Assembly (NCBI GenBank): GCA_934140575.1
Contig: CAKPBJ010000004.1
Coordinates: forward strand, 33,274-97,273
Direction: 5' to 3'
Length of the DNA: 64,000 bases
From: an uncultured Bacilli bacterium
Lineage (GTDB): Bacteria > Bacillota_I > Bacilli_A > RF39 > UBA660
Below the pieces are notes generated by a model, which saw only the letters and a program-made list of their open reading frames with translations, had not been told where the DNA came from and ran no database searches. The position numbers and the translations under genes were made by a program. Below, in pieces: positions 12,353 through 56,154 of this stretch (its first letter is position 1; every line of letters starts with the position of its first letter).

Positions 12353-12365
12353 ATTTATCCTCCTC

Positions 12366-12734: not shown

Positions 12735-12761
12735 AGATTATTCCTCCTTCTCATCTAAGCG

Positions 12762-13022: not shown

Positions 13023-13033
13023 TTTATATCCTC

Positions 13034-13228: not shown

Positions 13229-13649
13229 TTGATTCACCACCATTTTCTTTTTTTACAAATTTTGTTGTTACTGGTAGTTTATGAGAAGCAAGTCTTAATG
13301 CTTCACGTGCAGTTGCTTCATCAACACCTGCTATTTCGAACATTATTTTTCCTTCTTTAACTACTGCAACCCATCCTTCAACATTACCTTTACCTTTACC
13401 TTGTCTTGTACCGATAGGCTTTTTAGTTAATGGCATATGTGGGAAGATGTTTATCCAAACTTTTCCACCACGTTTCATGTAACGAGTCATAGCTACACGA
13501 GCAGCTTCGATTTGGTTTGCTGTAATCCAAGCACCTTCTTTTGCTTGAAGTCCATATTCACCGAAATGTAATTCTCTGTTTCCACGTGATCTTCCTTCGT
13601 AAGGTAATCTATGAACACGACGATATTTAGTTCTTGACGGTATTAACAT
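13218..13649 (-). CDS. rplP: 50S ribosomal protein L16
   Basis: The 143-aa ORF starts [14 protein letters not shown], the uL16 N-terminus. Confidence 0.95.
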
Positions 13650-37323: not shown

Positions 37324-38157
37324 TTAACTATTGAGTCTTTCTTTAAAAGTACATGATTGGCATAATTTTTCACAAGGTTTTCTATCTTGAAATGATTTTT
37401 TTAATGATATGTATTTTTCTGAATTAATTATTTCTTCTAGGCTTTCTTTGAATATATTACCAAGATTAACTACTCCATTTGAATCAAGACAACAAGGAAC
37501 TACTGTTCCATCTACTAATATACCTATTTGAGTTTTTAAGGCATAGCAATAACCATTACTTTTATGAGTTGTTACTTCTGGCCAAGAAAACTCATTATCT
37601 TTATCCACATATATTGTGGATTTTATTTTTATGTTATTAGATGTATAAATTTTATCAACAGTTTCTTGTGGTAAATTATAATATTTTTTTATTTTATTAA
37701 CAATTTCTTGTGACTTACTATCTAATTGATTATTTTTTAAAGTCCATAAACGATATATTATAATTTTATCTTTTAATAATTCCACTTTTTTAAATATTTC
37801 TTCACAGTAATTATCAAGACTATTTTCTGAATGAAGAGAGAAATTTATTTTGCGTAGTGAGTTACATTCACTTAACTCTTTTGCTACTTTACTAAATAAT
37901 GTACCATTTGTTGTAAGGTTTACTTTTAAATTATACTTATCTGCAAGGCGTAAGAACTCTATAATATTTGGATGAAGTAATGGTTCTCCTTTAATATGAA
38001 GATATATATAGTCGGTGTAGTCTTTTATTTTTATTAAAATATTTTCAAACTCTTCTGTTGTCATAAATCTTCTTTTTCTTTTTACTTCACTGCAAAAACT
38101 GCATTTTAGATTACAATTATTGGTAATTTCTATATAAATTTTTTTGTATTTTTTCAT
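37324..38157 (-). CDS. radical SAM/SPASM-domain protein
   Basis: The N-terminal CNLKCSFC motif is a CxxxCxxC cluster, and GEPLL is present. A C-terminal Cys cluster (CCLD...CEKLCQSC) is typical of SPASM/twitch domains. Its ATG overlaps the uvrB TGA as ATGA. Confidence 0.7.
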
Positions 38158-40106
38158 AGTGTTGTCTTCATTTCAAATAAGATATCACGTAATTCCATTG
38201 CTCTTTCAAAGTCAAGGTCTTTTGCAGCTTTTCTCATTTCTGCTTCGATACTATCTATTTCTTTCATTATTTCTTTCTTAGTTCTCTTCTTCTTTGTCTT
38301 TGTATCTGCATTAGCATTATTTGTGATAATGTCTCTTATATCCTTCTTTATTGTTTGTGGAACTATACCATGTTCTTCATTATATTTTTCCTGAATTTTT
38401 CTACGTCTTGCAGTTTCAGTAATTGCTTCATTCATAGAGTCTGTTATTTTATCACCATACATTATTACGTGACCATTTGCGTTTCTTGCACATCTTCCGA
38501 TAGTTTGAATAAGACTTCTTGTACTACGTAAGAATCCTTCTTTATCAGCATCAAGTATGGCAATTAATGATACTTCTGGAATGTCTAGACCTTCTCTTAA
38601 CAAGTTGATTCCTACAAGTACGTCGTATTTTTTGGCTCTTACATCATGAATTATTTGCATTCTCTCTAATGTTTTTACTTCACTATGAAGATAAGCAACT
38701 TTTATGTCTAACTCTTTTAGGTAATTTGTTAATTCCTCTGCCATTCTAATAGTTAAGGTTGTGATTAGTACTCTTTCATCTTTTTTGATTCTTTCATTTA
38801 TCTCACCAACAAGATCATCAATTTGACCTTCAGTTTTTCTTACTTCTATTGTTGGATCTAATAATCCTGTCGGTCTAATAATTTGTTCTACATATTGATT
38901 ATTTGTATGTTCTAATTCTAAATCACCTGGTGTTGCGGAAACATATATGGCTTGATTTATCTTTTTTTCAAATTCATCATACTTTAAAGGTCTATTATCT
39001 AGGGCACTTGGAAGTCTAAATCCATAATCAACTAAATTCATTTTTCTAGCTCTGTCACCATTATACATACCTCTAACTTGTGGTAATGTAACGTGAGATT
39101 CGTCTACTACTAATAAATAATCATCTGGGAAGAAGTCCATTAATGTCGTTGGTGTTTCTCCTGGCTTTCTTCCGGCCATTGGTGCAGAATAATTCTCTAT
39201 TCCTGAACAAAATCCTGTTTCTTCTAGCATCTCTAAATCATAATTTGTTCTTTGTTCTAGACGTTCTGCAGCAAGTAATTTATTTTCATTCTTTAACACT
39301 TCCAATCTGTCTTTTAATTCAAGTTTAATTCTTTCAATTGCTGATTTTAATTTTTCATCACTTACCACGAAGTGACTTGCGGGGAAGATGCTTACATTTT
39401 TCATATTTTTTAATATTGTACCAGTTAATGTGTCTATTTCACAAATTCTATCTATTTCCTCATCAAAAAATTCTATTCTATATCCTATTGTATTTTGATT
39501 TGCTGGAATAATTTCTAATGTATCTCCTCTTACTCTGAATGTACCACGCTTAAAGTCTAAATCATTTCTTTCATACAACATTTCAACTAACTTTGTTAGA
39601 ACTTGTTCTCTTGATGTGTTTTCTCCAACACTTAGAGTTAACATTTTGTTTTTATATTCTTCTACTTCACCAATACCATAAATACATGATACTGATGATA
39701 CTACTATTACATCTCTTCTACTAATAAGGGCAGAAGTTGCGGCATGACGTAATTCATCTATTTCATCATTAATTGATGAGTCTTTTTCTATGTAAGTATC
39801 AGTTGATGGAACATATGCTTCAGGTTGATAATAATCATAATAAGATACAAAATATTCTACTCTATTTTCAGGAAATAATTCTTTTAATTCACTGTATAAC
39901 TGACCAGCAAGAGTTTTATTATGAGCAAGAACTAGAGTTGGCTTATTTGTTCTTGCGATTACATTAGCTATAGTGAAAGTTTTTCCTGTTCCAGTAGCGC
40001 CTAGTAAAACTTGTTCTTTTTTTCCTTCTTCTAATCCTTTTACTAGTTTGTTAATTGCTTGTGGTTGGTCACCTGCTGGTTCATAATGTGCGTGTAATTT
40101 AAACAT
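38154..40106 (-). CDS. uvrB: excinuclease ABC subunit B
   Basis: The helicase motifs ([13 protein letters not shown]) are present, and the C-terminal UVR domain reads [15 protein letters not shown]. The likely start is [10 protein letters not shown] at 40106, preceded by GGAGGGAGG. Confidence 0.95.
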
Positions 40107-40242
40107 TTTTTTCCTCCCTCCTTTATAACTTTCTGTGACTTTTTTTGAACTTTTAAAAGTATAACTGTCAGCCAACTATTAGTCCCTAAATTTGTCCTCA
40201 TTGCTTATAATTTAATGGTTAAATTGATACTTTTTTCTTTGG

Positions 40243-40263
40243 GACGAATGAAAGTCACAAATT
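40243..40263 (+). repeat. 21-nt direct repeat, copy 1 (gggacgaatgaaagtcacaaa)
   Basis: An exact 21-mer recurs at 47537-47557 in the same orientation, with extended similarity of about 30 nt. The two copies bracket the accessory segment. Confidence 0.8.
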
Positions 40264-40433
40264 TTATTTTCTGGACTAAATAACATTAAACAACATTAGA
40301 TGGCGTTTTCGCTATATTATTTTATCATTTTTCCCTTGAAAAAACAAGGTAATCGCAAAAATACCCTATTCTTATTATCATCTATTTTTTAATTAAAATA
40401 CTGTTAATTCATTTAAAATATTTTCATCAATAG

Positions 40434-41135
40434 AAATATCAGATTCGTCCCCAATTTGTATTTCTAATTATTGGTACCGCAATTTATGCAGCAGCATATA
40501 ATTTATTTTTCTTTAAGAATAGCATAGTATTTGGTGGTGCAAGTGGTATATCAATAATTACCCAAAAGATAATAGATCCTTCTGTTATGATACTTATCTT
40601 AAACGTATTTTTCCTGATTTTAAGTTTGTTTTTATTAGGAAAAAGAAAAAACCTAGATTCGGTTGTAGGTTCTGTTTTATTTCCACTATTTGTTAAATTT
40701 ACGGCAAATATAGGAGATTATATTCATATTTCAAACGATAATTTACTTTTAATATCAATAGTAGGCGGTGTATGCGTAGGTACTGCATCTGATATTATAT
40801 TTAAAAGTTGATTTACAACTGGTGGAACTGATATATCAAACCAAGTAGTAGCAAGATATTTTAAAGTTTCAATCGGAACTTCTATGCTAATGACTGATGG
40901 ACTTTCAGCGTTTAATGTATCGGTTGGACAAATAGTTACTAAAGATACTGTAATAGGAAAATCAGGAAATACCGGTAATTCAACAGGACCACACTTACAT
41001 TTAGGATTAGCAAATGGTAGGTGATATGCTGACTATTATTCATATTATGGAAATAATTGTTTTATAGGACATTCATTTAACCCAAGAAATATAATAGGAT
41101 TTCCGGTAAAAGGACAGAACTATTATAACAGATAA
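40434..41135 (+). pseudogene. chimeric pseudogene: YitT-family N-terminal part joined to an M23-peptidase C-terminal fragment
   Basis: The translation QIRPQFVFLIIGTAIYAAAYNLF...FTTGGTDI matches residues about 20-175 of the YitT paralogue at 55275-56153. It then continues in frame into VGQIVTKDTVIGKSGNTGNSTGPHLHLGLANG, which is M23-like (compare GYMGNTGYSFGCHLHLE at 51576-52733). In-frame stops lie at 40809 and 41022, and no start codon is present. Confidence 0.7.
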
Positions 41136-41319
41136 AAAAATCTAAAAAAGTCAAGTTTTTAACTTTGATTTTTTTTAATTTACGTCAAGAAAAATATTGA
41201 TTTTTGTCGAATTTTGTGGTATTTTTTTATAGTAGGATAGCCGATTCTAAGTGGTTTAGTGGTTATCTAAAAGAAGCATTAAATGTCTTCAATATTTCAT
41301 ACAAAAGGAGGCGAATAAC

Positions 41320-41847
41320 GTGAATCAAAAGGAAAAGAAAGGGTTAATAGCTTTAGTAATACTACTTGTAGTAGCTATTGGTGTTGGTTTTGCAGCATCA
41401 CAAGACGCAGTAAATATTACTGGTACTGCAAGCGCTGTTGCAACGGATTTTGATATTCAGTTTAAAACTGATGCTGAAATAACAATACAAAAAAGTGCTG
41501 GTGCTGCAATAGCTGCTTCAGGTGCTTATGGTGCTAATGGAAATGCTGATGCTACAATGACTGTTTCTGGATTAAAGAACGCTGGTGATTATGCAGAAGC
41601 AACTTATACTATCATAAACAAAAGTACTGATGTAAACGCTGACATTACAGCAAAAGTATCATCTGCTATTGAAGATGCAGATCATTATAATGTTGAAGTA
41701 ACAGGTGGTGCAAATGGTGTTGCTCCAGATGCAACAACTACTGTAACAGTTAAAGTTACACTAATCAAAGCTTTTGCTGATGATACAGCTGCAAAGACAG
41801 CAAAATCATTCAAAATTACAGCAACTGGTGTAGCAGCTGAAAAATAA
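41320..41847 (+). CDS. small secreted protein with SipW-cognate-type signal peptide (TasA/BsaA-like matrix-fibre subunit candidate)
   Basis: The 175-aa ORF uses a GTG start after AAAGGAGG. It has a K-rich N-region, an h-region, then FAASQDAVNITGTASAV. The mature part is Ala/Thr/Gly/Val-rich and acidic. Confidence 0.55.
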   Translation: MNQKEKKGLIALVILLVVAIGVGFAASQDAVNITGTASAVATDFDIQFKTDAEITIQKSAGAAIAASGAYGANGNADATMTVSGLKNAGDYAEATYTIINKSTDVNADITAKVSSAIEDADHYNVEVTGGANGVAPDATTTVTVKVTLIKAFADDTAAKTAKSFKITATGVAAEK

Positions 41848-41882
41848 TATTTGAAAGAAATTAATTAAGGAGGAGGTATATC

Positions 41883-43007
41883 GTGGCTAAAAGAAGAGAT
41901 TCGGCTTATATATACTTTGCATTTGTAATAGTATTTCTTCTCCTTAATCTTCTTGTGCTAAATATTAGTGCAAAATTACAATTGTTACCCATATTTATAA
42001 TTATATTTTTGTTAAGTTTTATCTTCTTCAAATTTAGAAAAGACAAAACTTATGCAAGAATTCGGGTAACTATTACAATGTTACTTATAGGAATTGTACA
42101 AATAGTTTTATATCTTTTAACCGGCTTTTTAGAGGGTTTTTCTAAGAATGCTATTAGTATGAGTTTTAACCGTTTTTTAACCGTTATTTTACCTATTATA
42201 TTAATATTAGTAGTTATTGAATTATTAAGATATATGATATCAGTAAAATTCGAAAAAAACAATTTAATAAGAATACTTAGTATTACTATGTTTGTACTAT
42301 TTGATGTGACTTTATTTGGCTCAAATGTGATTTTTAATAGTTTGGATTCTGTATTAGAATTTTTAGGAATAACGTTTTTTCCTAGTCTGGTAAGTAATAT
42401 TGTGTTTGATGATATGGTAGTTAAATATGGATATAAACCAATACTTGTTTATAGATTATTAACAACGTTATGTTATTACATGTTGCCTATCGTTCCTAAT
42501 ATGTATATTTTATTTAGGGCAATTGCAAGAATAGTTATTCCTCTTATTTTTTACTTCATATTATCTTATATGTATGATAGGGTAACGTTTCAAGAAGCAT
42601 TAAAGGTAAAGCCTAATATAAGTATTTCATCAATAATTATACTTATATTAGTAATTATTATGGCAGGTTTAATATCTTGCGAATTTAGATATGGTATTTT
42701 AACAATTGGAAGTGGTTCTATGACTGGAACTTTAAACAAAGGAGATATTGCTTTTGTCGAAAAATTTAATGGTCAGGAGTTAGAAATAGGTGACATTATT
42801 ATATTTAAACGAGGCAAAAGAAATATAGTCCATAGAATCACACAAGTTGGCATATTCAATGATGAATACGTTTATATAACAAAAGGAGATAAAAATAAAG
42901 TAGAAGATAATGGGTATGTTTATCAAAAGGATATTCAAGGTATAGTTCACTATAGGATAAAATATATTGGATACCCATCTATTTGGATAAGAAATTTATT
43001 TAATTAA
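41883..43007 (+). CDS. SipW-type (archaeal/ER-type) signal peptidase I fused to an N-terminal 8-TM domain
   Basis: The C-terminal roughly 110 aa read GSGSMTGTLNKGDIAFV...IVHRITQV...ITKGDKN, with the Ser and His of the SipW/Sec11-type catalytic dyad. The N-terminal roughly 250 aa contain 8 predicted TM helices and no His. The start is GTG after GGAGGAGG. Confidence 0.6.
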   Translation: MAKRRDSAYIYFAFVIVFLLLNLLVLNISAKLQLLPIFIIIFLLSFIFFKFRKDKTYARIRVTITMLLIGIVQIVLYLLTGFLEGFSKNAISMSFNRFLTVILPIILILVVIELLRYMISVKFEKNNLIRILSITMFVLFDVTLFGSNVIFNSLDSVLEFLGITFFPSLVSNIVFDDMVVKYGYKPILVYRLLTTLCYYMLPIVPNMYILFRAIARIVIPLIFYFILSYMYDRVTFQEALKVKPNISISSIIILILVIIMAGLISCEFRYGILTIGSGSMTGTLNKGDIAFVEKFNGQELEIGDIIIFKRGKRNIVHRITQVGIFNDEYVYITKGDKNKVEDNGYVYQKDIQGIVHYRIKYIGYPSIWIRNLFN

Positions 43008-43038
43008 TGTAATTAAAATTTAAAAAGGAGGTAAAGTT

Positions 43039-44133
43039 ATGGACAGAAAACAAATAAACAAAGTTATGCAAGCAACAAAAAAAAGAACTAGAACTATTGC
43101 TATTTTGATATTTGTTGTAATAGCTGTTTTACTTGCAGCTATAAGCATAATTTTTATCTCTATAAATAGTGAGAAGAATTACTACATTCATTATGATGAA
43201 AAAAGTGATTTAGATTATAAGGTATATTTAAAAGAAAATGATTATTTTGGAAGATACCTAGGTAAAAACAATCAATATATTGCAAGCCTAATTGATTATG
43301 TGGAGGCAGATTTTAATTATAAATTATCAATCGATGAGAAAATTGATTATTCATATTATTATTACGTAGAAGCAACTGTTCAGGTTTTAGATACTAATGA
43401 TAAACCATTATATAAAAAGGTTGATAAAGTAGTTGAAAAACAATATTTCAAGGATCCTATTAATCATGCTTTTGAAATAGATCAAACTGTTAATTTGGAT
43501 TATAATTACTATAATAATATAGTAAATACGTTTATTAAGAGATATAACTTATCAAATGTTAAAAGTAATGTCACTTTAAGTATGTATGTTGGAATTGAAG
43601 GGGAATGTAAAAAATTTGATTCTTCTTTAGCAGACAACGCAGTTATTAGTATGAACGTCCCATTAACAACAAACACTGTTAATATTGACATGAATTATAA
43701 ATTAAATAATTCTACAAACAAGTTATTAAAATGTAGAGAAGAATCAGTATTAAATAATAAATTACTTATTTTAGGCATAGTTTTATTATTCATTGATTTA
43801 GGTGTTTTCGTAGGAACTATTAGATATTCAAAAAGAACTAGAAGCACTTTAACTATATATAATAAAAAACTAAAAAGTATTTTTAATAATTATGGTCAAT
43901 ATATATCTAAGATTAAAACGGAGTTTAAATATGAAAAATTTCAAATTGTATTAGTTGAAGAGTTTGAGGATTTATTTGAGGTAAGAAATTCAAGTAATTC
44001 ACCTATATTATTTTGTCAGGATGAAACAAAAACAAGAAGTGCCTTTGTTGTTCCAACAAATTCTGGACTAGTGTACATCTATTATTATTCAATTAGTAAT
44101 GTGATTGAGCAAGGATGCAAACATGAAAGTTAA
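43039..44133 (+). CDS. bitopic (2-TM) membrane protein of unknown function
   Basis: The 364-aa ORF has a TM helix near residues 20-42 and a second near 243-262, with a Tyr/Asp-rich extracytoplasmic domain between them. It overlaps the next gene. Confidence 0.5.
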   Translation: MDRKQINKVMQATKKRTRTIAILIFVVIAVLLAAISIIFISINSEKNYYIHYDEKSDLDYKVYLKENDYFGRYLGKNNQYIASLIDYVEADFNYKLSIDEKIDYSYYYYVEATVQVLDTNDKPLYKKVDKVVEKQYFKDPINHAFEIDQTVNLDYNYYNNIVNTFIKRYNLSNVKSNVTLSMYVGIEGECKKFDSSLADNAVISMNVPLTTNTVNIDMNYKLNNSTNKLLKCREESVLNNKLLILGIVLLFIDLGVFVGTIRYSKRTRSTLTIYNKKLKSIFNNYGQYISKIKTEFKYEKFQIVLVEEFEDLFEVRNSSNSPILFCQDETKTRSAFVVPTNSGLVYIYYYSISNVIEQGCKHES

Positions 44134-46492
44134 AGATAAATTTTTAAAGGCACGAAAAAAATATAGTGATAGTAAGAAGTGGGCAATTTTTCTTATATTA
44201 ACTATATTTTTATTGAATATAGGTTACGCAGCTTCAAAGGCCTCGCTTGAAATAAATGGTAGTGCGAGTGCTGTAAAAGTACCAGAATTATTTATCGAAG
44301 AAGTAAAAATAATTGACATAAACGGATGTTCACAAAATGAACTTCCCATAACAAATGGAACTACTTTGGATACTAATATAAATTTTCCTTCTAATGAATA
44401 TTCATATATAACATATCAGGTAACTATTGCAAATGGTACGGATTCTATTCAAAAGTATACAGGAGAAACTTATAATAGCGTTACATCAACTAAAAATGTT
44501 ATTAATTATGAACTTACGGATGGTCTTTCTTCCGGTGAGTATTTGTTTCCTGGGAATAGTGCAACATATACGTTAACTTATAAGTATAGAAACGGTGCAA
44601 GTACAGGTAATTATGATTTGAAAATGAACTTTAATTTTGAAGATTCCGGTAAGTTTTCTGCACTTTCATATACAAATAGTGTTGATTTAACTAATAAAAC
44701 TAAGGAAGCCGTAAAAATTAAGGTAATGAATAATGGAGATTCTGCAATCAATTATAATCTCAACATAGATAATACTAAATTTGAACTAACTGATATTAAT
44801 GGAAATTTTTTAAGTTCTCTTTCTATAAAAGCTCATACTGAAGAAGAAATAACTGTTTATATATCCAAAAAGCCAGATGTTACATATTACAAAACAGAAT
44901 ATGAAACAAACTTTAGTTTAAGTTATAATGATATTACACTAGATTTTGGAAAAATAAAAATAAAAACAAATACAACAAGTGGCTATGTTGATACAACACC
45001 TCCTCAAATAGGGGCAGTATCAGTTGATATCGTATATGAAGTCGGATCAATTGATGTTACTTGGTCTAATTTAGATAATAAAAATGAGGCTCCAGTAACT
45101 AATTATGTTGTTTTACTTTATAATGATTCGGGAACTCTTGTTACAACCGGAAACACTGGTAATTCAGATACCACCTATAGATTTAAAAATCAAGCACAAG
45201 GAAATTATTATGCTGTAGTTTATGGTATAGACGAAGCTGAAAATTCAGGAGAAACTTATGTTTCAGTTTCTTCAACATCAACAACCAATGCAAGAAAATC
45301 TGTTACAAAAGAAATGAGATGGAAAAGAACAATAACATATAATGTTACAAATATTAATGTTACAGGACCTAATGAGGCTAATTTAGGTGAGTCATTTACA
45401 GCTACATTAAAACCGAATAATAACTATAAATATAATTCTGTTCCTTCAGTTACGTCAGACGGTAAAACTTTTAAAGATTATTCAACGGATGCTAATAAAT
45501 ATACTATAACAATAAATCAGGTGACAGGTGATTTAGTTATTAATGCAACAGCAGCAAGAAATGCTTGCCTTGCTAAAGGAACAAAAATATTACTTGCAAA
45601 TGGCAAATATAAGAACATAGAAAATATTAGATATGATGATTTACTAATGGTATATAATCATGAAAATGGTACATTTACTCCTGAATATCCTATTTGGATT
45701 GAAAAAGGTAATTTGTCTAGTAATTATCAAGTAATAACATTTAGTGATGGTACTTCTTTAACAACGATTGATAAACATTCTTTATTTAGTGTTGATGATA
45801 ATAGATATGTTGATGTAACAGATGAAAATACATTTCACGTTGGAACTAACATATTAAAAACAGTAAAATCTAAGAGAGGTTACAAGCTCAAAAGTGTTTC
45901 TGTAACTAATATAGAAAAGGTAAATAAATCGATTGATTATTATGACGTTGTATCAACAAGATACTATGATATAATTGCAAACGATGTATTAACATCAGAT
46001 GGAAGAACAGGACTAGTTAATTTTTATGAATTTAAGGAAAATGCTGTTTGGTCTTCAAGAAGACAAGAAGTTATAAAGAATAATACATTCTTAAACTATG
46101 AAGATTATAAATTTATTCCGTATTACTTGTTCCATGGCTTAAGAGCACAAGATGGAGCGGTTATAATTAAGTATAATTATATGACTAAAGAAGAATTTGA
46201 ATCTGTGTTTACCGATTTATTATTAAATAAAGAAATGGTATTAGATCCAATAACTAAAAACAAAAAAAGATATTGGATGGTAACAACATCAGATGATAAA
46301 GTAACAAGTAAAAATAAAGGAAAATATTTACTGAAAGAAAATAGTTATTATACGTTAGAAAAACCTAAGAAAACGAAAGATTTCAAAGGTTGGTATAATA
46401 CTGGCGATGGGAAAATTTATAAACCTGGTAGTAAGGTAAAGATATATCATGGTACACATTTTGTTGCATCATATAAAAAAATTAGCTCATAA
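44123..46492 (+). CDS. large secreted multidomain protein (SipW-cognate-type signal, FN3-like, Hint/intein-like domain, C-terminal Flg_new-like repeat)
   Basis: The start is taken at ATG 44123, with AAGGA 6 nt upstream. The signal ends NIGYAASKASLEINGSASAV, which parallels gene 41320. An FN3-like segment is present (DVTWSNL...YRFKNQAQGNYYAVVYGIDEAENSG). The Hint N-terminus reads CLAKGTKILLANGKYKNIENIRYDDLL and the Hint C-terminal block reads YYDIIANDVLTSDG. The C-terminus, FKGWYNTGDGKIYKPGSKVKIYHGTHFVASYK, resembles a Listeria-Bacteroides repeat. Confidence 0.6.
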   Translation: MKVKDKFLKARKKYSDSKKWAIFLILTIFLLNIGYAASKASLEINGSASAVKVPELFIEEVKIIDINGCSQNELPITNGTTLDTNINFPSNEYSYITYQVTIANGTDSIQKYTGETYNSVTSTKNVINYELTDGLSSGEYLFPGNSATYTLTYKYRNGASTGNYDLKMNFNFEDSGKFSALSYTNSVDLTNKTKEAVKIKVMNNGDSAINYNLNIDNTKFELTDINGNFLSSLSIKAHTEEEITVYISKKPDVTYYKTEYETNFSLSYNDITLDFGKIKIKTNTTSGYVDTTPPQIGAVSVDIVYEVGSIDVTWSNLDNKNEAPVTNYVVLLYNDSGTLVTTGNTGNSDTTYRFKNQAQGNYYAVVYGIDEAENSGETYVSVSSTSTTNARKSVTKEMRWKRTITYNVTNINVTGPNEANLGESFTATLKPNNNYKYNSVPSVTSDGKTFKDYSTDANKYTITINQVTGDLVINATAARNACLAKGTKILLANGKYKNIENIRYDDLLMVYNHENGTFTPEYPIWIEKGNLSSNYQVITFSDGTSLTTIDKHSLFSVDDNRYVDVTDENTFHVGTNILKTVKSKRGYKLKSVSVTNIEKVNKSIDYYDVVSTRYYDIIANDVLTSDGRTGLVNFYEFKENAVWSSRRQEVIKNNTFLNYEDYKFIPYYLFHGLRAQDGAVIIKYNYMTKEEFESVFTDLLLNKEMVLDPITKNKKRYWMVTTSDDKVTSKNKGKYLLKENSYYTLEKPKKTKDFKGWYNTGDGKIYKPGSKVKIYHGTHFVASYKKISS

Positions 46493-46513
46493 CTACATGA
46501 GCTAATTTTTTTT
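46481..46513. terminator. bidirectional rho-independent terminator
   Basis: ATTAGCTCAT aacta CATGAGCTAAT forms a 10-bp stem followed by TTTTTTTT on the plus strand and an A-run before it. It overlaps the stop of gene 44123-46492. Confidence 0.75.
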
Positions 46514-46531
46514 ATAGATCAAATAGAAAAA

Positions 46532-46885
46532 TTATTCTTTAATTATATATTTTATTACTTCTTCTATGCTTTTCTTTGTTCCATTAGTATTGTAATATAT
46601 TAAAACAGTATCAATAGCAAGTTGTAGCATATTAAAATATATTGTAATCTCACGCTCTTTAGCAGTGTCTTTATATTCATTAATATATTTTTCAAATATC
46701 TTTTTATCTTCATTTGAAAGTGGTTTTATTTCAAAATTATATTTCTTTTCTTTTTTTGCAAATTCAGGAATTATTATTTCTTCTTTTGTATCTTCTATTA
46801 CATTTTTTTGTTCTTCTTTTTGTTTTTTAATATCACTTATTTTGACTTTAAGGTGGTCATTTGCAGAATTCTCTTTTACTTTCAT
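46532..46885 (-). CDS. hypothetical K/E-rich protein with predicted C-terminal ribbon-helix-helix-like segment (ParG/omega-like?)
   Basis: The 117-aa ORF has a C-terminus (REITIYFNMLQLAIDTVLIYYNTNGTKKSIEEVIKYIIKE) with a beta-alpha-alpha pattern. It lies immediately downstream of the ParA fragment, in the same frame, separated by one stop codon. Confidence 0.35.
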   Translation of the reverse strand: MKVKENSANDHLKVKISDIKKQKEEQKNVIEDTKEEIIIPEFAKKEKKYNFEIKPLSNEDKKIFEKYINEYKDTAKEREITIYFNMLQLAIDTVLIYYNTNGTKKSIEEVIKYIIKE

Positions 46886-46900
46886 TTCTGATACTATCTG

Positions 46901-47206
46901 TTATACTCTCTCCATTGCTATCTCTTGAATATTCATTAAGTGCTCATTAGTAGTGTTGTGTATAGAGATTTCTTTCTCTCTTTCAAATACTTTAACCTCA
47001 TCATTGCGTGTTTGTCCTCTACTTAAATCTTCTTCATTATACCAACCTGCATAAGTTGTTAGGTTACTTTGTGGATCAACATCTACAATTAAAACTTTTT
47101 TACATTGCTTTGCTAATGCTACTCCAAGATTAAAAGTTGTTGTTGTTTTACCAACTCCCTCTTTTTGGTTTGTAATAGCAATTACCTTACACCTACTTTC
47201 TTGCAT
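46901..47206 (-). pseudogene. ParA/Soj-family partition ATPase, N-terminal fragment (truncated)
   Basis: The 101-aa ORF has the deviant Walker A ([23 protein letters not shown]...[10 protein letters not shown]) but ends after about 100 aa, whereas full ParA proteins are about 200-260 aa. Confidence 0.6.
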
Positions 47207-47300
47207 ATATTCTCCTCCTTTCTTTTTAATTTAGCCACCATACAATTAAATAGAGTGGCTATGTATGGGTACAAAAAAAAACTGACTATTTCTAATCAGT

Positions 47301-47453
47301 TCAAATATATTTATTTAATTTTAATATAAGTTCATCAACAGGTTCTGTGTATCTGCCATGTTCTAATATTTTATTTCTAAATTCATTTAAAGCATTTAAT
47401 ACTATTTTTATTTCATTATTATAAGTCGGTAGTTTAATTTTTTTCTTTATCAT
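47301..47453 (-). CDS. small hypothetical protein (50 aa)
   Basis: This ORF is not in the ORF track. GGGAG lies 10 nt upstream of the ATG at 47453. The translation is MIKKKIKLPTYNNEIKIVLNALNEFRNKILEHGRYTEPVDELILKLNKYI, ending at TGA. Confidence 0.3.
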   Translation of the reverse strand: MIKKKIKLPTYNNEIKIVLNALNEFRNKILEHGRYTEPVDELILKLNKYI

Positions 47454-47536
47454 AATAATCAAACTCCCATTTGTTATTTATATTATATCAATATAATAAT
47501 ATTAAGTTAATTGTGCAATTATTATTGGGGACGAAT

Positions 47537-47557
47537 TGGGACGAATGAAAGTCACAA
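47537..47557 (+). repeat. 21-nt direct repeat, copy 2 (gggacgaatgaaagtcacaaa)
   Basis: This is identical to 40243-40263. It is preceded by a partial tandem copy (gggacgaatt). Confidence 0.8.
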
Positions 47558-47644
47558 AATCTATTTTAACATTCAGTATTATCTAGTCCATTTCGTTTTA
47601 TTTAGTCCTATTTTTGTGGATTTATCAACACTAGATAACATAGG

Positions 47645-47928
47645 AAAAGTGCTAACATCATAATAAGATACAAAATATTCTACTCTATTTTCAGGAAATA
47701 ATTCTTTTAATTCACTGTATAACTGGCCAGCAAGAGTCTTATTATGAGCAAGAACTAGAGTTGGCTTATTTGTTCTTGCAATTACATTAGCTATAGTGAA
47801 AGTTTTTCCTGTTCCAGTAGTGCCTAGTAAAACTTGTTTTTTCCTTCTTCTAATCCCTTTACTAGTTCGTTAATTGCCTGTGGTTAATCTCCATTTGGTT
47901 TATATTTTGAAACAAGTTTAAACATAAA
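47645..47928 (-). pseudogene. duplicated, decayed copy of the uvrB 5' end (codons 1 to about 93)
   Basis: The segment aligns to 39832-40106 (the real uvrB 5' end) and covers the start codon. Identity is about 96-97 percent over the first roughly 190 nt, then a 5-nt deletion, and the last roughly 40 nt are heavily diverged. The deletion breaks the frame. Confidence 0.8.
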
Positions 47929-48014
47929 TTACTTCTTTTTTTATTTATTTGTATTTTATCATTTTATATACATCAAAACAAGGAAACTATTTTTAGTTTC
48001 CTATATATTTTTTA

Positions 48015-49160
48015 TTAATAATTTTTATTTTCCTTTACCATTTTTTTGGGTTTTTCTTCATTTTCATCTTGCAAATTCTTTGGTTCAAAAGGTTTTAATT
48101 TACTAAAAAAATCATCTTCTATCAAAAAGGAATTTTTAGGATTAAATATTGGTTCATGGCTTGCGAAATCTTTACTTGATAAATGTAATCCTTGAACAAA
48201 AGAAGTTCCTATATCTCCATTAAAACAAATACTTCTTAAATGATTAGAAAAACCATTTGGATAATCATAGTGATTTGATGGTTCACTAGATATTACTCCA
48301 TTAGTTGTACATTTATCTATCTTATCAATAAACTCATAGGATACGTTATTTGTTTTCTCATGCAAAAGATCATTACTTTTTTTCATGCAAGAACTATAAA
48401 GATAAAGTCCAGCGGCTTGAATAGGGTTAAATTCTAATACATCAATATAACTTTGATTTTCAATTTGATATTCAAATAAATCTAAAACATAATAATCAGG
48501 AAATACTCCTTTAAGTTTTTCAACAATACTTTCTGCAAATTCTAATACTTCTGGCTCTATACTATGTAAAATAGTAGTTGTATTTCTAGAAATATTATAG
48601 ATTTCATTGTTAACTACAAAACATCGATATTCTTTTACACCATAATTATCCTCTTCAATATTAACTTTTTTACTAATAATAAAGTCATCTTCTAAATGAT
48701 GCATTAAAGTTTTGTGTAATGCGCATTCTTTATCTAAAAGTAACTTTACTGGAATAATAGCACTAAAGTTTTTAGTTTTAGTTTTAAAGAATATTTCTTT
48801 TCCATATACTTCTTCTATTTCTTTTACTATATCAGAGTTAATCAAATCTTTTCCTTTAAATATTTTACATTTTCTTTCTGTAGAGTAATAATTTGGCCAA
48901 CTTTTTACTATCTCAACATCATTATTTGACATGATAGGAATACCACCTTGTTTAATAATTTCATCATTCATATCATGTATTTGAGTTTCACCAGTTCTTG
49001 GAAATATTAGTTTAGACTTAATATCTATTATATTACCATCAAAATCAGTAAAAATTTTTAATTTATTATCATAAAGTATTCCATTTTGATTCATCTTAGA
49101 AATTGCCATTTCCCTTTTAGAATAATCCCATGGTAAAAGTTTATCAAAACAATATAACAT
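48015..49160 (-). CDS. ATP-grasp-fold domain protein (putative ligase)
   Basis: The 381-aa ORF has a central region (YRCFVVNNEIY ... YVLDLFEYQIENQSYIDVLEFNP) that resembles ATP-grasp nucleotide-binding motifs. Confidence 0.45.
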   Translation of the reverse strand: MLYCFDKLLPWDYSKREMAISKMNQNGILYDNKLKIFTDFDGNIIDIKSKLIFPRTGETQIHDMNDEIIKQGGIPIMSNNDVEIVKSWPNYYSTERKCKIFKGKDLINSDIVKEIEEVYGKEIFFKTKTKNFSAIIPVKLLLDKECALHKTLMHHLEDDFIISKKVNIEEDNYGVKEYRCFVVNNEIYNISRNTTTILHSIEPEVLEFAESIVEKLKGVFPDYYVLDLFEYQIENQSYIDVLEFNPIQAAGLYLYSSCMKKSNDLLHEKTNNVSYEFIDKIDKCTTNGVISSEPSNHYDYPNGFSNHLRSICFNGDIGTSFVQGLHLSSKDFASHEPIFNPKNSFLIEDDFFSKLKPFEPKNLQDENEEKPKKMVKENKNY

Positions 49161-49445
49161 AATGTCACCTCAAAATCATACTTATTATAAATCATTTTCA
49201 AAAAAATACAAAGAACTATTTTATTATTTTATAAGCTAATACGAGATTTTCATGATATTCTGAATTTTTTCTATGTCATTTGCTTTCTACTTCTTTTATA
49301 ATTTAATAACTTTACTTGTTGCGTGATTTAAATAAAAGTATGTTTACAGTTTTTTCTATTAGTAAATCACTTAAAGTACTAATAAAATTTTCTGCTAATT
49401 AAACTATATTTAGATTTTTTATTTTGCTTATAAACTTGTAATACA

Positions 49446-50087
49446 TTAATTGTTATCTTCAATTATAGTTCCACAATACTCACATTTTACTTTACTAAAT
49501 TTATTAAGTTCATTAATTGCACCACAATTTGGACAATTTATAGTCTTTTTTTCCAAACTAACTTTTCTTTTATCAATAGTATAATATGATATCGACTTAT
49601 CAACGTTATTTAATTTTATTCCATTTAATAAACCTTTTGAATAAAGATATGATATGTCATTATATATTTTATTTTTTGTCTCTTCAAGGTTATTAAATGT
49701 AGTTTTTGGGTATCTTACTGCTATTTCATCTATTTGTAAGTGTTGATAATAGATAAATTTTGAATATTCATTTAATAGTTTCTCATCACTTTCAGAACAA
49801 GGCCTTATTTTTTTAGTATTTACATCTATATAATAATCTCCAATTAATCTTTTGTTCTTTAGATAGCGAATTTTCATGACACATTCTTCTAATGTACAAT
49901 TACTCTCTTTAGCAATAATTTCTATATCATCATATTTTTTATTTATAATTAAATCATAAATTATTTCTAATTTCCTATTAAATTCATTATCCGTTGGCTC
50001 AGTTAAATTATAGTATTTAGCGTATTTTTTATATGATTCATCTGATATTTTTGCTTTTGTCTTTTTTATTAATTCTAGTAAGTTCAT
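49446..50087 (-). CDS. hypothetical protein with C-terminal zinc ribbon
   Basis: The 213-aa ORF has a C-terminal CPNCG...CEYCG zinc ribbon. Confidence 0.5.
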   Translation of the reverse strand: MNLLELIKKTKAKISDESYKKYAKYYNLTEPTDNEFNRKLEIIYDLIINKKYDDIEIIAKESNCTLEECVMKIRYLKNKRLIGDYYIDVNTKKIRPCSESDEKLLNEYSKFIYYQHLQIDEIAVRYPKTTFNNLEETKNKIYNDISYLYSKGLLNGIKLNNVDKSISYYTIDKRKVSLEKKTINCPNCGAINELNKFSKVKCEYCGTIIEDNN

Positions 50088-50153
50088 TTTCTTCTCCTTT
50101 TTTATTATAAATTTTTTGTATAAAACTTTCTGATTTATAATTTATCTTATTTT

Positions 50154-51047
50154 TTAGTTTTTATATAGTGCGTTTTCTTTTTCTATTTTTGGATACCAGT
50201 TTTCATAATCAACAGTATAAAAATTCATCTTTTCTTGTTTTAGTCCATCATAATAATTTTTATGTTTTTTATCTCTTATACTTGCGGCATATGTTGAATC
50301 ATAATAATAGAATTTTCCATTATATTTGACTATATTCCACATGTGTGAACCTGTTGAGTAGCCTGTTATAATCATAGAATCTATACCTATATTTTGAAAA
50401 ATCACTTGACTTGTTTTAGCAAATCCTGCACATACTGCATTACCTTTTATAAAGACATTATATATAGATTGATTTTTAGAACTTCCTGTAAGCAATTGAT
50501 CATAATAAGCATTATCTCCAATCCATTCATAAACATATTTTATTTTTTCTAAATCAGACATATTTTTTGTAGCTTTTTTTATTTTATCAATTTTACGTTC
50601 TATTAACAATGTATTTATTTCTTCTTCTAATTGGTTATTAATTGCATATATTGGAAATATTTCTATATAATCTGAATTTTCTTTATAGCGATAAGAATAG
50701 TATGCATAACTTATTAATTCTGGATGTTCTACCCATATAGCTTGATTGGCTACCCTATAATCACTAATTATACTTTCAATTGTTTCATTATCTTGCTTTT
50801 TTATTTTTTTAGAAGTCTTTCTTTGTTTTATTGTTTCTAATAAAGTTTTATATGCTTTTTTCTCATTTTTACTTAAATAATTATTATAAATTTTTCCATC
50901 TGACATATATATATCATTTATGTATAATTCGCTTTTTTTATTTATATTTGGATTTGGTTCTATTATTCTTGTATAATTTATATAAATGAACACTGAAGCA
51001 ATAATTAATATTACAGTAAAAATTTTATTTCTTTTATAATATCTCAT
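50154..51047 (-). CDS. membrane-anchored transglutaminase-like (papain-fold) domain protein
   Basis: The 297-aa ORF has an N-terminal TM helix. GNAVCAGFAKTSQVIF...GYSTGSHMWNIVKYNGKFYYYDST matches the Cys-His-Asp arrangement of the transglutaminase-like core. Confidence 0.6.
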   Translation of the reverse strand: MRYYKRNKIFTVILIIASVFIYINYTRIIEPNPNINKKSELYINDIYMSDGKIYNNYLSKNEKKAYKTLLETIKQRKTSKKIKKQDNETIESIISDYRVANQAIWVEHPELISYAYYSYRYKENSDYIEIFPIYAINNQLEEEINTLLIERKIDKIKKATKNMSDLEKIKYVYEWIGDNAYYDQLLTGSSKNQSIYNVFIKGNAVCAGFAKTSQVIFQNIGIDSMIITGYSTGSHMWNIVKYNGKFYYYDSTYAASIRDKKHKNYYDGLKQEKMNFYTVDYENWYPKIEKENALYKN

Positions 51048-51404
51048 TTAGTCCTCCATATCATATCTATATGCCCCTGTAAAATAAGCAAGTATTGGAT
51101 AAAATACAAATGGAAATATAAAGCAAAGTAAACCTGTAATTTTTCCTTTTTCATAGGCATCTGCTAGTATAAATGGCATAAATACAAAAATAAGTGTTCC
51201 AAAAAACGATCTGTCTGGCGAGAAAATTAATCCTAAGCTAATGATTATTAATAAAATTGGACTTATTTCTAATATTTGAAATAAAATGTATAAGTTATAT
51301 ATGGGGATTAAGCCAGATAGAGCATTATATCCTGCTTTACTAAAAAAGCCTGGTAATGATAGATAAAATGATAATATATAAATAATTATTAAAACTTTAA
51401 TCAT
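51048..51404 (-). CDS. small membrane protein
   Basis: The 118-aa ORF has 3-4 TM helices, and its start abuts the stop of the transglutaminase-like gene. Confidence 0.5.
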   Translation of the reverse strand: MIKVLIIIYILSFYLSLPGFFSKAGYNALSGLIPIYNLYILFQILEISPILLIIISLGLIFSPDRSFFGTLIFVFMPFILADAYEKGKITGLLCFIFPFVFYPILAYFTGAYRYDMED

Positions 51405-51575: not shown

Positions 51576-52733
51576 TTAACGTGGAACATACTTAAATGGA
51601 TTAATTATATGTCTTATATATGTATAATATGATGAATTATAGTTCCATCCATAATCTTCTGACATTTCTAGATGTAGGTGGCAACCAAATGAATATCCTG
51701 TATTTCCCATGTATCCTATTACTTGTCCTACGCTTACATCTTGGCCTGAACTTACTGCATAACCATTCAAATGAGCATATTGTGAGAATACTAATCTACC
51801 ATTTACATTATGGACTATTATAATCATCTTTGCTCCATAATTGTCTAATGTGTTTCCTACATAATAAACTCTACCTGATGCTACGGCTTTGATTGGTGCA
51901 TTGCATGCTTTTCCAATATCTACACCTTTGTGTCCTCTATTTCCATAACTTTGTGAAATATGACCTCCACTTACTGGGAAAGTAAATCCATTTGCAGCAA
52001 TTACATCTCCAGCACTTGTACTTCCACCAGGTTTAACTGCTGGCTTTGGTTTATCACAATCAATACCAATTCTATCGCTTGATTTACATCCTTTATTCTT
52101 ATAATATGTAACTCTTGCTTGAGCAGTCTTTAAGTCATTTTCAATATTTGGTATTGTTCCTTCTATACTTTTATTATCAGCTTCTATTTTTTTCTGTTCA
52201 GCTTCTTGTTCTGATTGAAGTTTTTTTAATTCTTCTTTCTTAGCTTTTAATTCTATTTGACTTTTCTTATTTTTCTCAACTAAAGCATTTAATTCCTTCA
52301 TGATTTTATCATTGTAATCTGTTAGTTGTTCTACAACAGACATACGATAAATCATATCTGTTATTGAACTTGCTCCAAAGATATATTCTAAATAAGAATT
52401 ATTTCCATTTGATATTTGATAATACTCAACTAATTTCTTTGATTCTGCAGTTTTCTTTTTTATCTTTGCATTAGAGTCATCAATTTCTTTTTGTAGTCTT
52501 TCTTGTTCTTCTTGATTTTTTTGTATTTGACTTTGATAACTTTTTATCTTTGCTTGAACACTGGCTATTGTTTCATTATTTTTTGCAAGTTGAGCTTTTT
52601 TATCATTTATTTGTGATTGATATTTAGCAACTTCATTTTCATATTCTTGTAATGTTACAGCTTTTGTATTTATTGGTAGTGCTGCAATAGATACTATAAT
52701 TATAGCTGTTAGTAATACTTCTTTTATTTTCAT
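51576..52733 (-). CDS. M23-family peptidoglycan endopeptidase with N-terminal coiled coil (PcsB/EnvC-like FtsEX partner)
   Basis: The 385-aa ORF has a signal peptide, a long coiled-coil region, and a C-terminal M23 motif (GNTGYSFGCHLHLE). It is directly downstream of ftsX. Confidence 0.8.
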   Translation of the reverse strand: MKIKEVLLTAIIIVSIAALPINTKAVTLQEYENEVAKYQSQINDKKAQLAKNNETIASVQAKIKSYQSQIQKNQEEQERLQKEIDDSNAKIKKKTAESKKLVEYYQISNGNNSYLEYIFGASSITDMIYRMSVVEQLTDYNDKIMKELNALVEKNKKSQIELKAKKEELKKLQSEQEAEQKKIEADNKSIEGTIPNIENDLKTAQARVTYYKNKGCKSSDRIGIDCDKPKPAVKPGGSTSAGDVIAANGFTFPVSGGHISQSYGNRGHKGVDIGKACNAPIKAVASGRVYYVGNTLDNYGAKMIIIVHNVNGRLVFSQYAHLNGYAVSSGQDVSVGQVIGYMGNTGYSFGCHLHLEMSEDYGWNYNSSYYTYIRHIINPFKYVPR

Positions 52734-53632
52734 TATATCTTTAAGTATTTCCTTACAGCACTTGCACTACCTATCATACCTACTATTACTCCAATTACTA
52801 TTACAATTAGTGATGTAGAATAAATAAATGGTTCAGGTTTAATTAATTTAATTAACTCTGAGAATAAGTATCCATTAAAATGTTCATAGAATGCTAAATA
52901 GCCATATGTTGTTATTAATACTGGTACAATAGAACCAAATAGTCCTAAAATCATACCTTCTATGATAAATGGAATCTTTATTGATAAGTTACTAGCTCCT
53001 ACAACACGCATTATTTCTATTTCTCTATGTCTTGCTGAAATAGTTAACTTAATTGTATTAATAATTAAGAATATAGTTACTAAAATTAGAGCAATCACTA
53101 TTCCATAAGTTACTTTTTGTATTGATGAGAATGCTGTTATCATTTTATCAACATATCCTTCACCATATCTTACAACTGAAACATTATCCATATTTTTTAT
53201 TGTATTTGCTGTTTTTTTAATTTTAGTGATGTCTTTTACTTTAACTTGGAATGTATCTTTTAGTGGGGATTCATTTTCGTCCCATCCATCTAATACTGTT
53301 TTAAAGACATCTGATTCTTTTTGCATTTGTTCTTTTACTTCAACCTTAGATTGATATGTATATTTTTCAACATTTGATAATTTTTTTATTTCTTTTTCTG
53401 TAGTTTTTACATCTTCTTCATCTGCATTATTATTTAAAAATACTACTATTGTCATGTCTCGCTCTATTTCTTTTGTAAAGTTTTCTACATTGAACGATGC
53501 AATAATGGCAATGGCAACTATTATTAGTGTGATTGTAATACAGGAAATTGATGCTAGGGATAAACTAAAGTTTCTTATTACACTTTTGAAAGCATCCCTT
53601 ATGCTTCTTCCTAACATTCTAAACAACTTCAT
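52733..53632 (-). CDS. ftsX: cell-division ABC transporter permease FtsX
   Basis: The 299-aa ORF has 4 TM helices and a large extracytoplasmic loop. It overlaps ftsE. Confidence 0.8.
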   Translation of the reverse strand: MKLFRMLGRSIRDAFKSVIRNFSLSLASISCITITLIIVAIAIIASFNVENFTKEIERDMTIVVFLNNNADEEDVKTTEKEIKKLSNVEKYTYQSKVEVKEQMQKESDVFKTVLDGWDENESPLKDTFQVKVKDITKIKKTANTIKNMDNVSVVRYGEGYVDKMITAFSSIQKVTYGIVIALILVTIFLIINTIKLTISARHREIEIMRVVGASNLSIKIPFIIEGMILGLFGSIVPVLITTYGYLAFYEHFNGYLFSELIKLIKPEPFIYSTSLIVIVIGVIVGMIGSASAVRKYLKI

Positions 53633-54317
53633 CGCTATAAGTTCCTTTCTGTTTATAATGTACTAAATGACCATCTTTTAAAGTGATAACTTGTTTTTTC
53701 ATCTTGTTTACTATGTCTTTATCATGAGTTGCCATTATAATTGTTGTCCCTCTATTTTTATTGATGTCATCTAATACTTTCATTATTTCCATACTTTTTT
53801 CTGGATCTAGGTTTCCTGTAGGTTCATCACATAATAATAATTTAGGATTATTTACTATTGCTCTTGCGATTGCGACACGTTGTTGTTCTCCTCCTGATAA
53901 TTGGTCAGGGTAATTATGAACTTTATTTTTTAATCCAACATCTTCTAATGCTTTTAGAACTTTTTTTCTAATTATTTCTTTTTTCTCACCAATGCATTCT
54001 AATGCAAACGCTACATTTTCATAGACTGTTAGTTTTGGTAGTAGTCTATAATCTTGAAAAACTATTCCTAGTTTTCTTCTAAGTTTATAGACTTTTTTAT
54101 TTCTTAGTTTTGCAACATCAAGACCACCTACTACTACTTGACCTTTTGTCGGTCTTTCCTCTCTATATAACATTTTTATCAATGTTGACTTTCCACTTCC
54201 TGAGCCTCCAATTATGAAGACAAAAGAACCTTTTTCTATTGCTAAGTTTAAATCGTAGATGGCTGTTACTCCGTTTTTATATTTTTTTTCTACATTTTTA
54301 ATTCGAATTAAATCCAT
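53619..54317 (-). CDS. ftsE: cell-division ABC transporter ATP-binding protein FtsE
   Basis: The Walker A (GGSGSGKST), the LSGGEQQRVAIARA signature and the Walker B (LLCDEPTGNLD) are all present. Confidence 0.9.
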   Translation of the reverse strand: MDLIRIKNVEKKYKNGVTAIYDLNLAIEKGSFVFIIGGSGSGKSTLIKMLYREERPTKGQVVVGGLDVAKLRNKKVYKLRRKLGIVFQDYRLLPKLTVYENVAFALECIGEKKEIIRKKVLKALEDVGLKNKVHNYPDQLSGGEQQRVAIARAIVNNPKLLLCDEPTGNLDPEKSMEIMKVLDDINKNRGTTIIMATHDKDIVNKMKKQVITLKDGHLVHYKQKGTYSDEVV

Positions 54318-54415
54318 CTATATTATCACCACCTTAGTTATTTCATTATATCATAATTTTTTGTATAAAAAAAGAAAGGCTCTCTTTAGCCTTTAGCTTT
54401 TAATTTTACTTTACG

Positions 54416-56153: not shown

Positions 56154-56154
56154 A

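Follow-up and report, generated by a model that had tools for sequence, protein, structure and literature searches.

The stretch of DNA considered here, referred to below as the window, comprises 64,000 nucleotides (nt) of contig CAKPBJ010000004.1 from an uncultured Bacilli bacterium (GTDB lineage RF39; UBA660). At positions 40457-41135 of its plus strand lies a dead in-frame fusion of a fragment of yitT with a 3' fragment of pcsB, the gene of an M23 peptidase. The fusion is an ordinary pseudogene, the junctions of which are unusually readable. A first-pass annotation, made from the sequence alone, had described the locus as a chimeric YitT/M23 pseudogene with two in-frame stops and no start codon, and this description stands. 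Frame 1 runs from 40434 to 41135 as 233 codons followed by TAA and is interrupted by TGA at codons 126 and 197; the earliest in-frame ATG, GTG or TTG is an internal ATG at 40587, upstream of which no Shine-Dalgarno sequence is visible. Both Pfam domains score above their gathering cut-offs, YitT_membrane with 109.6 bits over profile positions 2-149 of 205 and Peptidase_M23 with 38.6 bits over positions 51-90 of 96. In BLASTP comparisons the YitT half matches the resident protein YitT1 (55275-56153) at 45% over 159 amino acids (aa; E 6e-41), and the M23 half matches the C-terminus of the resident M23 protein (51576-52733) at 43% over 61 aa (E 5e-08), so that low-complexity similarity does not account for either assignment. 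The order of the parts, YitT and then the C-terminus of the peptidase, is as first described, but the first eight codons of the frame (40434-40456, 'KYQIRPQF'), are not YitT but the antisense of the last codons of a tyrosine-integrase gene.

What is left of each gene is limited. The YitT half retains the conserved GFTTGGTD motif but not the end of the YitT_membrane domain, where intact relatives go on with ..IVLAGGFFFGW... It is recognizable by its profile match as a member of the YitT family (PF02588 with PF10035, DUF2179; COG1284), from which it differs in being truncated at both ends, in having no start and in carrying a nonsense codon within a conserved motif. It also differs in lacking DUF2179, a domain that both resident proteins, YitT1 and YitT2, have and that is listed in the precomputed Pfam annotation of full-length relatives (e.g. 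P0003 and P0005). The M23 half consists of only the last 76 codons of pcsB and has neither a coiled coil nor a signal peptide. In the PcsB protein of the related locus L012, HAAID occupies residues 278-282 and HLH residues 361-363; the remnant keeps the HLH (HxH) zinc ligands, and HxxxD has gone with the deleted part. Because HAAID precedes codon 332, the first PcsB codon of the remnant, the fusion cannot form the M23 zinc site. Both genes are thus truncated, the start is lost and two nonsense codons are present, as is characteristic of a pseudogene. A scan for promoters and terminators around the remnant gave hits no more than in shuffled sequence. Across the fusion point the peptide reads ..LMTDGLSAFNVSVGQ.., and gene callers predict 'proteins' of 46, 74 or 182 aa at this place. 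The locus should be annotated as one remnant rather than as two small open reading frames (ORFs), and the pseudogene itself offers no function to discover.

Donor lineage and the adjoining block

Intact YitT proteins matching the YitT half at 91-93% were found by protein search (P0001 and P0009), as were two proteins with the same YitT-M23 fusion in an uninterrupted frame (P0007 and P0008). The contigs encoding intact relatives, together with a scan of GTDB species representatives, provided 25 loci of the donor clade (L006-L030). The organisms are all uncultured Bacilli of RF39 type, among them Clostridium sp. CAG:594 and 'Tenericutes' UMGS957; the GTDB genus CAG-594 is Ca. Aphodocola of the order RF39 (PMC8035907). 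The gene order on one strand is prfB, a single yitT, ftsE, ftsX and a gene for a coiled-coil M23 hydrolase in 24 of the 25 loci, the remaining one (L008) ending too early, and uvrB and uvrA follow the M23 gene wherever the fetched sequence extends that far.

The two halves of the remnant are much closer to this clade than the rest of the genome is. The YitT half (window 40454-40904) is 95-96% identical in nucleotide sequence, without gaps, to yitT of L009-L012 and 94% identical to that of L007; at the protein level it is 90-91% identical to L007-L012, and the M23 half is 84-92% identical to L007 and L009-L012. The window's own proteins reach only about 70% (UvrB and UvrA), 69% (FtsE), 53% (FtsX), 60-67% (PrfB), 45-52% (YitT1) and 29-36% (the resident M23 protein) against the same clade. 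UvrB of the window is 69-72% identical to every member, compared with 86-100% among the members, and uvrB is about 71% identical to the clade at the nucleotide level, compared with 94-97% for the remnant. In neighbour-joining trees both halves nest in the sub-clade L007-L012, the M23 half as sister to L009 and L012, whereas the resident YitT1, YitT2 and M23 proteins lie outside the foreign clade. Identity far above the genome background thus goes together with nesting inside a foreign lineage, and these identities and trees indicate that the remnant is DNA of a different genus-level lineage and not a paralogue that arose within the genome. The earlier proposal that a diverged copy had been imported together with an accessory segment is therefore correct as to the import, but the source was placed in another strain or replicon, which is too close, and the copy is diverged only in relation to the resident genes, being 95-97% identical in DNA to the foreign locus. 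As a separate observation, yitT is present as a tandem pair in the resident locus (54416-56153, minus strand), compared with a single gene in the donor-clade loci; in the tree, YitT1 groups with the yitT of the donor clade and YitT2 is a deep outgroup.

The match to the donor clade continues beyond the fusion. Window positions 40901-46763 are 97.4% identical over 5,871 bp to positions 13450-19320 of L012, where the block sits between pcsB and uvrB and contains the 3' end of pcsB, a 179-aa ORF (the counterpart of the 175-aa protein of the window), a SipW-type signal peptidase, a DUF5305 protein, a protein of about 790 aa and part of a small convergent gene, inside which the homology ends at 46763. 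The signal peptidase of the window matches TIGR02228 with 77 bits. Downstream of pcsB, L009 has the beginning of this island, and CAG:594 is without the island. The M23 tail is DNA that flanks the tasA/sipW-like island in the donor and arrived with it.

In the four-gene cluster within the block (41320-46492, plus strand) one protein, of 374 aa, ends in a SipW/archaeal-type signal peptidase domain, and another, of 795 aa, has weak matches to Hint and Ig-like domains; neither the 795-aa nor the 175-aa protein has a confident family, and for the 175-aa gene the ratio of nonsynonymous to synonymous substitution rates (dN/dS) is about 0.8-0.9 against L012. Because the cluster is 97.4% identical to that of UMGS957, it has recently moved between genera.

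Relative to L012, about 2.98 kb is missing from the window (L012 positions 10472-13454), namely the 3' end of yitT, ftsE, ftsX and codons 1-331 of pcsB. The fusion point lies between 40904 and 40905 and joins codon 177 of yitT to codon 332 of pcsB. The donor yitT reads ..GGACTTATTG.. at the junction and the donor pcsB ..CACTTATCAGCG.., with ACTTAT common to both; the window junction, GGACTT-TCAGCG, has one A fewer than the shared patch, and the frame is preserved. A single deletion of the middle of a homologous locus had been proposed, and this holds, although the size given for it (about 4.5 kb) and the assumption of a source with two yitT genes do not. The donor clade keeps the locus intact in every genome examined, and the deletion must therefore have affected a copy that was redundant, either during import or after it. 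Taken together, the remnant is very probably a non-functional relic that was carried on horizontally acquired DNA of the CAG:594 / UMGS957 group and was then deleted internally. The coordinates of the remnant, of the adjoining block and of the surrounding features are collected in Table 1.

Table 1. Features of the remnant and its surroundings (window coordinates)
Feature	Position	Strand	Remarks
yitT' fragment	40457-40904	+	donor YitT codons ~29-177; transmembrane region only
'pcsB 3' fragment	40905-41135	+	donor PcsB codons 332-407 and natural TAA; last 76 codons
In-frame TGA no. 1	40809-40811	+	codon 126, in conserved YitT motif
In-frame TGA no. 2	41022-41024	+	codon 197
Deletion junction	40899-40909	+	GGACTT/TCAGC, in frame; also in L031-L033
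Co-imported block	41136-46763	+	5.6 kb; 175-aa secreted protein, SipW-type signal peptidase, DUF5305, 795-aa protein, 3' part of small convergent gene
3' part of small convergent gene	46532-46763	-	right end of imported block
Filler of 258 nt	46764-47021		between imported block and truncated parA
Functional uvrB	38154-40106	-	650 aa, ATG at 40106
Element arm, uvrB start to integrase tail	40107-40392		repeat TTGGGACGAATGAAAGTCACAAA at 40239-40270
Tyrosine-integrase gene tail	40393-40467	-	last 24 codons and stop, ..LEIQIGDESDISIDENILNELTVF followed by stop
Other element arm	47022-47656	-	parA 5' part 47022-47206, 50-aa ORF 47301-47453, GGGACGAAT repeats 47524-47567
uvrB' stub	47657-47925	-	269 nt, direct duplicate of uvrB 5' end
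Resident intact prfB-yitT1-yitT2-ftsE-ftsX-pcsB(M23)	51576-57009	-	ORFs and domains; native counterpart of the remnant's source; 46-69% aa identity to donor clade, in line with UvrB and UvrA (about 70%)

The integrative element beside uvrB

The left boundary of the foreign DNA was mapped base by base. The yitT-derived DNA begins at 40457, and in a three-way alignment positions 40457-40469 (TGTATTTCTAATT) match both the integrase gene and the donor yitT, which gives a junction microhomology of 13 nt. The translation of the integrase tail matches the C-terminus of a 433-aa integrase in L035, a related metagenome contig, where the protein is intact, has Phage_integrase, SAM_3 and Arm-DNA-bind_4 domains and occupies the same position beside uvrB. 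It is followed there by a second integrase of 398 aa, an HTH_17 protein and a PemK/MazF toxin.

Two stretches of the window resemble such contigs closely. Positions 40107-40469 are 93-96% identical to L035, L036 and L038, and positions 47022-47600 are 92-100% identical to L038 and L048, the second arm as a whole being 95% identical to L048 and 92.5% to L038. In the hosts of L035, L036, L038 and L048 uvrB is only 60-88% identical per 50-nt bin, compared with 92-100% for the two stretches; because they are conserved far above the adjoining uvrB, both are arms of a mobile element. They are bordered by the 5' end of uvrB and the uvrB' stub, which form direct repeats. The stub is 90% identical to window 39834-40106 (96% along 191 nt, but 80% in the first 89 nt), equivalent stubs occur in L038 and L048, and beyond it a native-type upstream region (47926-48010) aligns to the regions upstream of uvrB in L010 and L011. 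The idea that the element supplies a replacement 5' end of uvrB is unsupported, since both uvrB 5' copies are at host-level, not element-level, divergence between hosts.

In the window the element is dead and consists of plasmid-like remains at the 5' end of uvrB. An intact integrase is missing beside uvrB, where 24 codons are left, and parA is truncated. The ParA-like ATPase (46901-47206, minus strand, 101 aa) has a Pfam match on its parA' part, and its homology to the element stops at about codon 62. Genes for two tyrosine integrases, an HTH_17 protein, a PemK/MazF toxin, ParA and a putative ParB belong to the element in other hosts (L035, L036, L038, L044 and L048); the complete ParA of L048 has 276 aa and precedes a putative ParB-like ORF of 312 aa. 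Beyond the uvrB' stub of L048 (5168-6339, minus strand) lie ORFs of 273 and 93 aa, a putative IS3-type transposase pair. L038 has the element, with integrase fragments, parA and the stub, but without the yitT/M23/tasA block; the element therefore predates the import.

Four copies of the motif GGGACGAAT(GAAAGTCAC) are present in the window, compared with an expectation of 0.05, and all of them are in the arms. They lie at 40241, 40443 (minus strand), 47528 and 47538, one of them inside the coding sequence of the integrase tail, and an 18-nt version, GGGACGAATGAAAGTCAC, is found once per arm in direct orientation. The copies may be arm-type binding sites of the recombinase; the viral contigs scanned for the motif contained none.

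The first-pass annotation had seen in the remnant a mirror, on the opposite strand, of the resident locus. The opposite orientation is incidental; it has no mechanistic meaning and reflects how the foreign block joined the decayed element beside uvrB. The remnant and the resident locus share too little nucleotide identity to recombine. Inversion through a 13-nt inverted repeat, ATTCGTCCCCAAT (40443-40455, with its complement at 47524-47536), was considered as its cause and dropped as not needed, since the left copy proved to lie in the coding part of the integrase tail ('IGDES') and those on the right belong to the arm repeats of the element.

Decay of the fusion and alternative explanations

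The same left and deletion junctions are present in contigs from independent samples of this species, which are 99.5-100% identical to the window in L001-L005 and 97.4-98.5% identical in L031-L033 and L046. The lesions differ among them. Where the first TGA stands, the donors and most sister strains encode Gly (GGA), whereas P0006 and P0072 encode Trp; in place of the second, donors and sister strains alike have Trp. In L031 (P0008) the frame of the remnant stays open as far as the natural stop, L032 and L033 lack both TGAs of the window and have instead a Tyr-to-stop change (..YADYYS, then stop), P0075 has a frameshifted tail, and further variants replace conserved glycines by Trp or Val. Among copies of the remnant dN/dS is 0.4-1.5, compared with 0.00-0.28 for the intact donor yitT, values that come from small counts of 6-18 substitutions per pair. 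In matched strain pairs dN of the remnant is 0.02-0.027, compared with about 0.004 for the sipW-like gene and about 0.002 for the DUF5305 gene, a ratio of about 3-10; few as the substitutions are, every comparison has the same direction. The cluster of 182-aa ORFs contains 110 distinct sequences and that of the 292-aa resident YitT1 only 27, although the latter is found on many more contigs. Judged from these comparisons, the two stops of the window are strain-specific and late, the remnant is under relaxed constraint, and its lesions arose independently across lineages.

Four other explanations of the locus have to be weighed against a horizontally acquired relic. Reading both TGAs as sense codons, either Trp (code 4) or Gly (code 25), would leave the ORF uninterrupted, and it is true that both stops are TGA and that the organism, at 28% GC, is rich in AT and has Mollicutes-like lineages among its relatives. 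Such recoding can nevertheless be ruled out for practical purposes. The window is densely coding under table 11 and uses TGA to terminate 5 of its 54 long ORFs, and its prfB, which encodes release factor 2 (56155-57240, minus strand, of which the listed 284-aa ORF covers just the downstream frame), contains the site of the canonical programmed +1 frameshift, GGAGG..CTT TGA C, through which this factor regulates its own synthesis. No single reassignment fits in any case, because relatives have Gly in place of one TGA and Trp in place of the other. It is scarcely more credible that the remnant stems from an ancient duplication of the resident yitT1-yitT2-ftsE-ftsX-M23 locus, followed by divergence in place and the loss of about 4.5 kb. 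The same two gene families do end the resident locus, only 10 kb away, as had been pointed out and as both ORFs and Pfam domains bear out. The nucleotide alignment of the remnant to that locus, however, yields almost nothing, a single match of 94 nt at 71%, and the low protein identities to the resident genes contrast with 94-97% nucleotide identity to a foreign locus with one yitT, from which the deleted interval measures 2.98 kb; the trees, too, place both halves with that locus and leave the resident YitT1 and M23 proteins outside. A comparably slight chance is given to an assembly chimera, in which the junction would result from the co-assembly of two gut species sharing the 97% identical island. 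The contig of L004 ends inside the remnant (at about window position 40993), as expected for shared sequence, a break that is probably due to 97% identity with a co-resident species disrupting the assembly. Yet the junctions and their flanks recur in L001-L003, L005, L031-L033 and L046, which come from different studies with different contig-naming conventions, each of these contigs has point differences of its own, the chimeric ORF is found on contigs of up to 263 kb, and the remnant has private substitutions that occur in no donor.

That the fusion is functional and that the strain of the window has lost it is improbable, though somewhat less so than the other three. The 182-aa ORF, a YitT transmembrane part with an M23 tail, would be expressed, for instance as a membrane-anchored non-catalytic M23 tail, and could modulate FtsEX-PcsB or the neighbouring cluster of secreted proteins. 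The fusion is in frame where the shared ACTTAT patch would predict a frameshift, the ORF is intact in many strains, and it stands directly upstream of the tasA/sipW-like genes and is co-directional with them. On the other hand, its internal Met start has no Shine-Dalgarno sequence and the promoter scan is no better than for shuffled sequence; about 105 N-terminal residues of YitT, the entire DUF2179 and the HxxxD zinc ligands are missing; at least three independent disruptions have occurred (the two TGAs here, the Tyr-to-stop change of L032/L033 and the frameshift of P0075), along with radical substitutions at conserved glycines, and dN is several-fold above that of neighbouring genes.

Several results weigh against the explanation by horizontal acquisition and subsequent decay, or at least against parts of it. 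None of the fetched donors is identical, the best reaching 97.4%, and the true donor is therefore unsampled. The right end is not clean, in that none of the fetched loci has a counterpart of the 258 nt at 46764-47021; this end (46763/46764) yielded no homologous anchor, so that a one-step event is unsupported. The motif of the element arms is absent from all 25 donor-clade loci, so that capture inside the donor is unsupported. An aberrant excision from the donor chromosome was rejected because of this absence and because the 128-aa gene does not have the orientation to the stub that it would require. The dN/dS values suffer from their small counts. Finally, most sampled strains keep an open 182-aa frame, in 110 protein variants, and expression of a fusion protein is therefore conceivable as far as the reading frames indicate.

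Proposed origin and related systems

The following course of events would account for the locus as an acquired and decayed relic. The DNA comes from the CAG:594 (Ca. Aphodocola) / UMGS957 group of RF39 bacteria, in which the gene order prfB-yitT-ftsE-ftsX-pcsB-(tasA/sipW-like island)-uvrB is conserved. A chromosomal block, from yitT through the island upstream of uvrB, would have been joined into the resident decaying element at the 5' end of uvrB. The left join is illegitimate, connecting the 3' end of the integrase gene to codon 29 of yitT by way of the 13-nt microhomology. One internal deletion within the shared ACTTAT patch would then have trimmed the redundant yitT-ftsEX-pcsB part, and the resulting fusion, without a start, a ribosome-binding site or HxxxD, is decaying neutrally; in the window strain TGA has replaced GGA or TGG at one position and TGG at the other, and different lesions have arisen in other strains. 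The identity of the two halves, their donor lineage and contiguity with the island, the junction sequences and their recurrence across strains, the independent lesions and the setting in the element are observed directly. The order of import and deletion is what we infer from these data, and entry may have been by transformation-like illegitimate recombination or by capture in the element.

Homology-facilitated illegitimate recombination combines 3-10 bp at the illegitimate end with a homologous anchor at the other, according to the summary of de Vries & Wackernagel 2002 and Prudhomme et al. 2002 in PMC6382021. Compared with the process as outlined in that summary, and with gene remnants at the margins of horizontally acquired islands, the present locus is similar in that foreign DNA is joined at microhomology (13 nt at the left join, 6 nt in the patch shared across the deletion) and in that truncated flanking genes came with selectable or neutral cargo; it differs from the outline in that the right end abuts the 258 nt without a match in the fetched loci and yielded no anchor.

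The tyrosine-recombinase integrative elements that are found at the ends of housekeeping genes, with a displaced stub of the gene left behind, offer a second comparison. The uvrB' stub and the full uvrB as direct repeats, the arms with their repeated motifs, the integrases that adjoin uvrB in L035 and the ParA and putative ParB at the other end in L048 are all features of this kind. The differences are that the window keeps only 24 integrase codons and a truncated parA and that the uvrB copies are at host-level divergence. It is a speculative and rather unlikely extension that an integrative, plasmid-like element targeting the 5' end of uvrB in RF39 gut bacteria offers chromosomal DNA of other genera a landing pad or a means of transport. 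If it were so, the element family would shuttle host segments, such as the yitT...pcsB flank with the tasA/sipW-like island, between lineages. In a weaker variant of this extension the in-frame 182-aa fusion, open in most strains, may be expressed and have an acquired role.

The source of the M23 half is the terminal gene of a cell-division hydrolase locus of the FtsEX-PcsB type, in which ftsE and ftsX precede the gene of a coiled-coil peptidoglycan hydrolase (PF24568, CC_PcsB). Both L007 and the resident protein have CC_PcsB and Peptidase_M23 directly after ftsE-ftsX, whereas the remnant is without the coiled coil, the signal peptide and HxxxD, and ftsE and ftsX are deleted. In S. pneumoniae PcsB has a CHAP domain and not an M23 domain as here.

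The value of the remnant is that of a marker, because both of its halves match an intact donor locus base by base. It allows the recent transfer of a SipW/TasA-like secreted-protein island between genera of uncultured RF39 gut bacteria to be dated and oriented, it displays the junction chemistry in the form of the 13-nt and 6-nt microhomologies, and it probably explains the breaks of assemblies at this place in metagenomes of these species. It also marks the pcsB-uvrB interval and the uvrB-associated element as sites of gene flux in the RF39 group.

At the right end of the imported block an ORF of 117 aa (46532-46885, minus strand) is chimeric: its C-terminal part of about 77 aa matches the 128-aa gene beside uvrB in the donor clade (L012, L015 and L018), and its N-terminal part of about 40 aa derives from the 258-nt stretch. 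The pcsB-uvrB interval varies in the group from 0.1 to about 5 kb (L006-L030). In the window this interval (48015-51404, minus strand) also has genes for R2K ATP-grasp, zinc-ribbon, transglutaminase-like and DUF5684 proteins.

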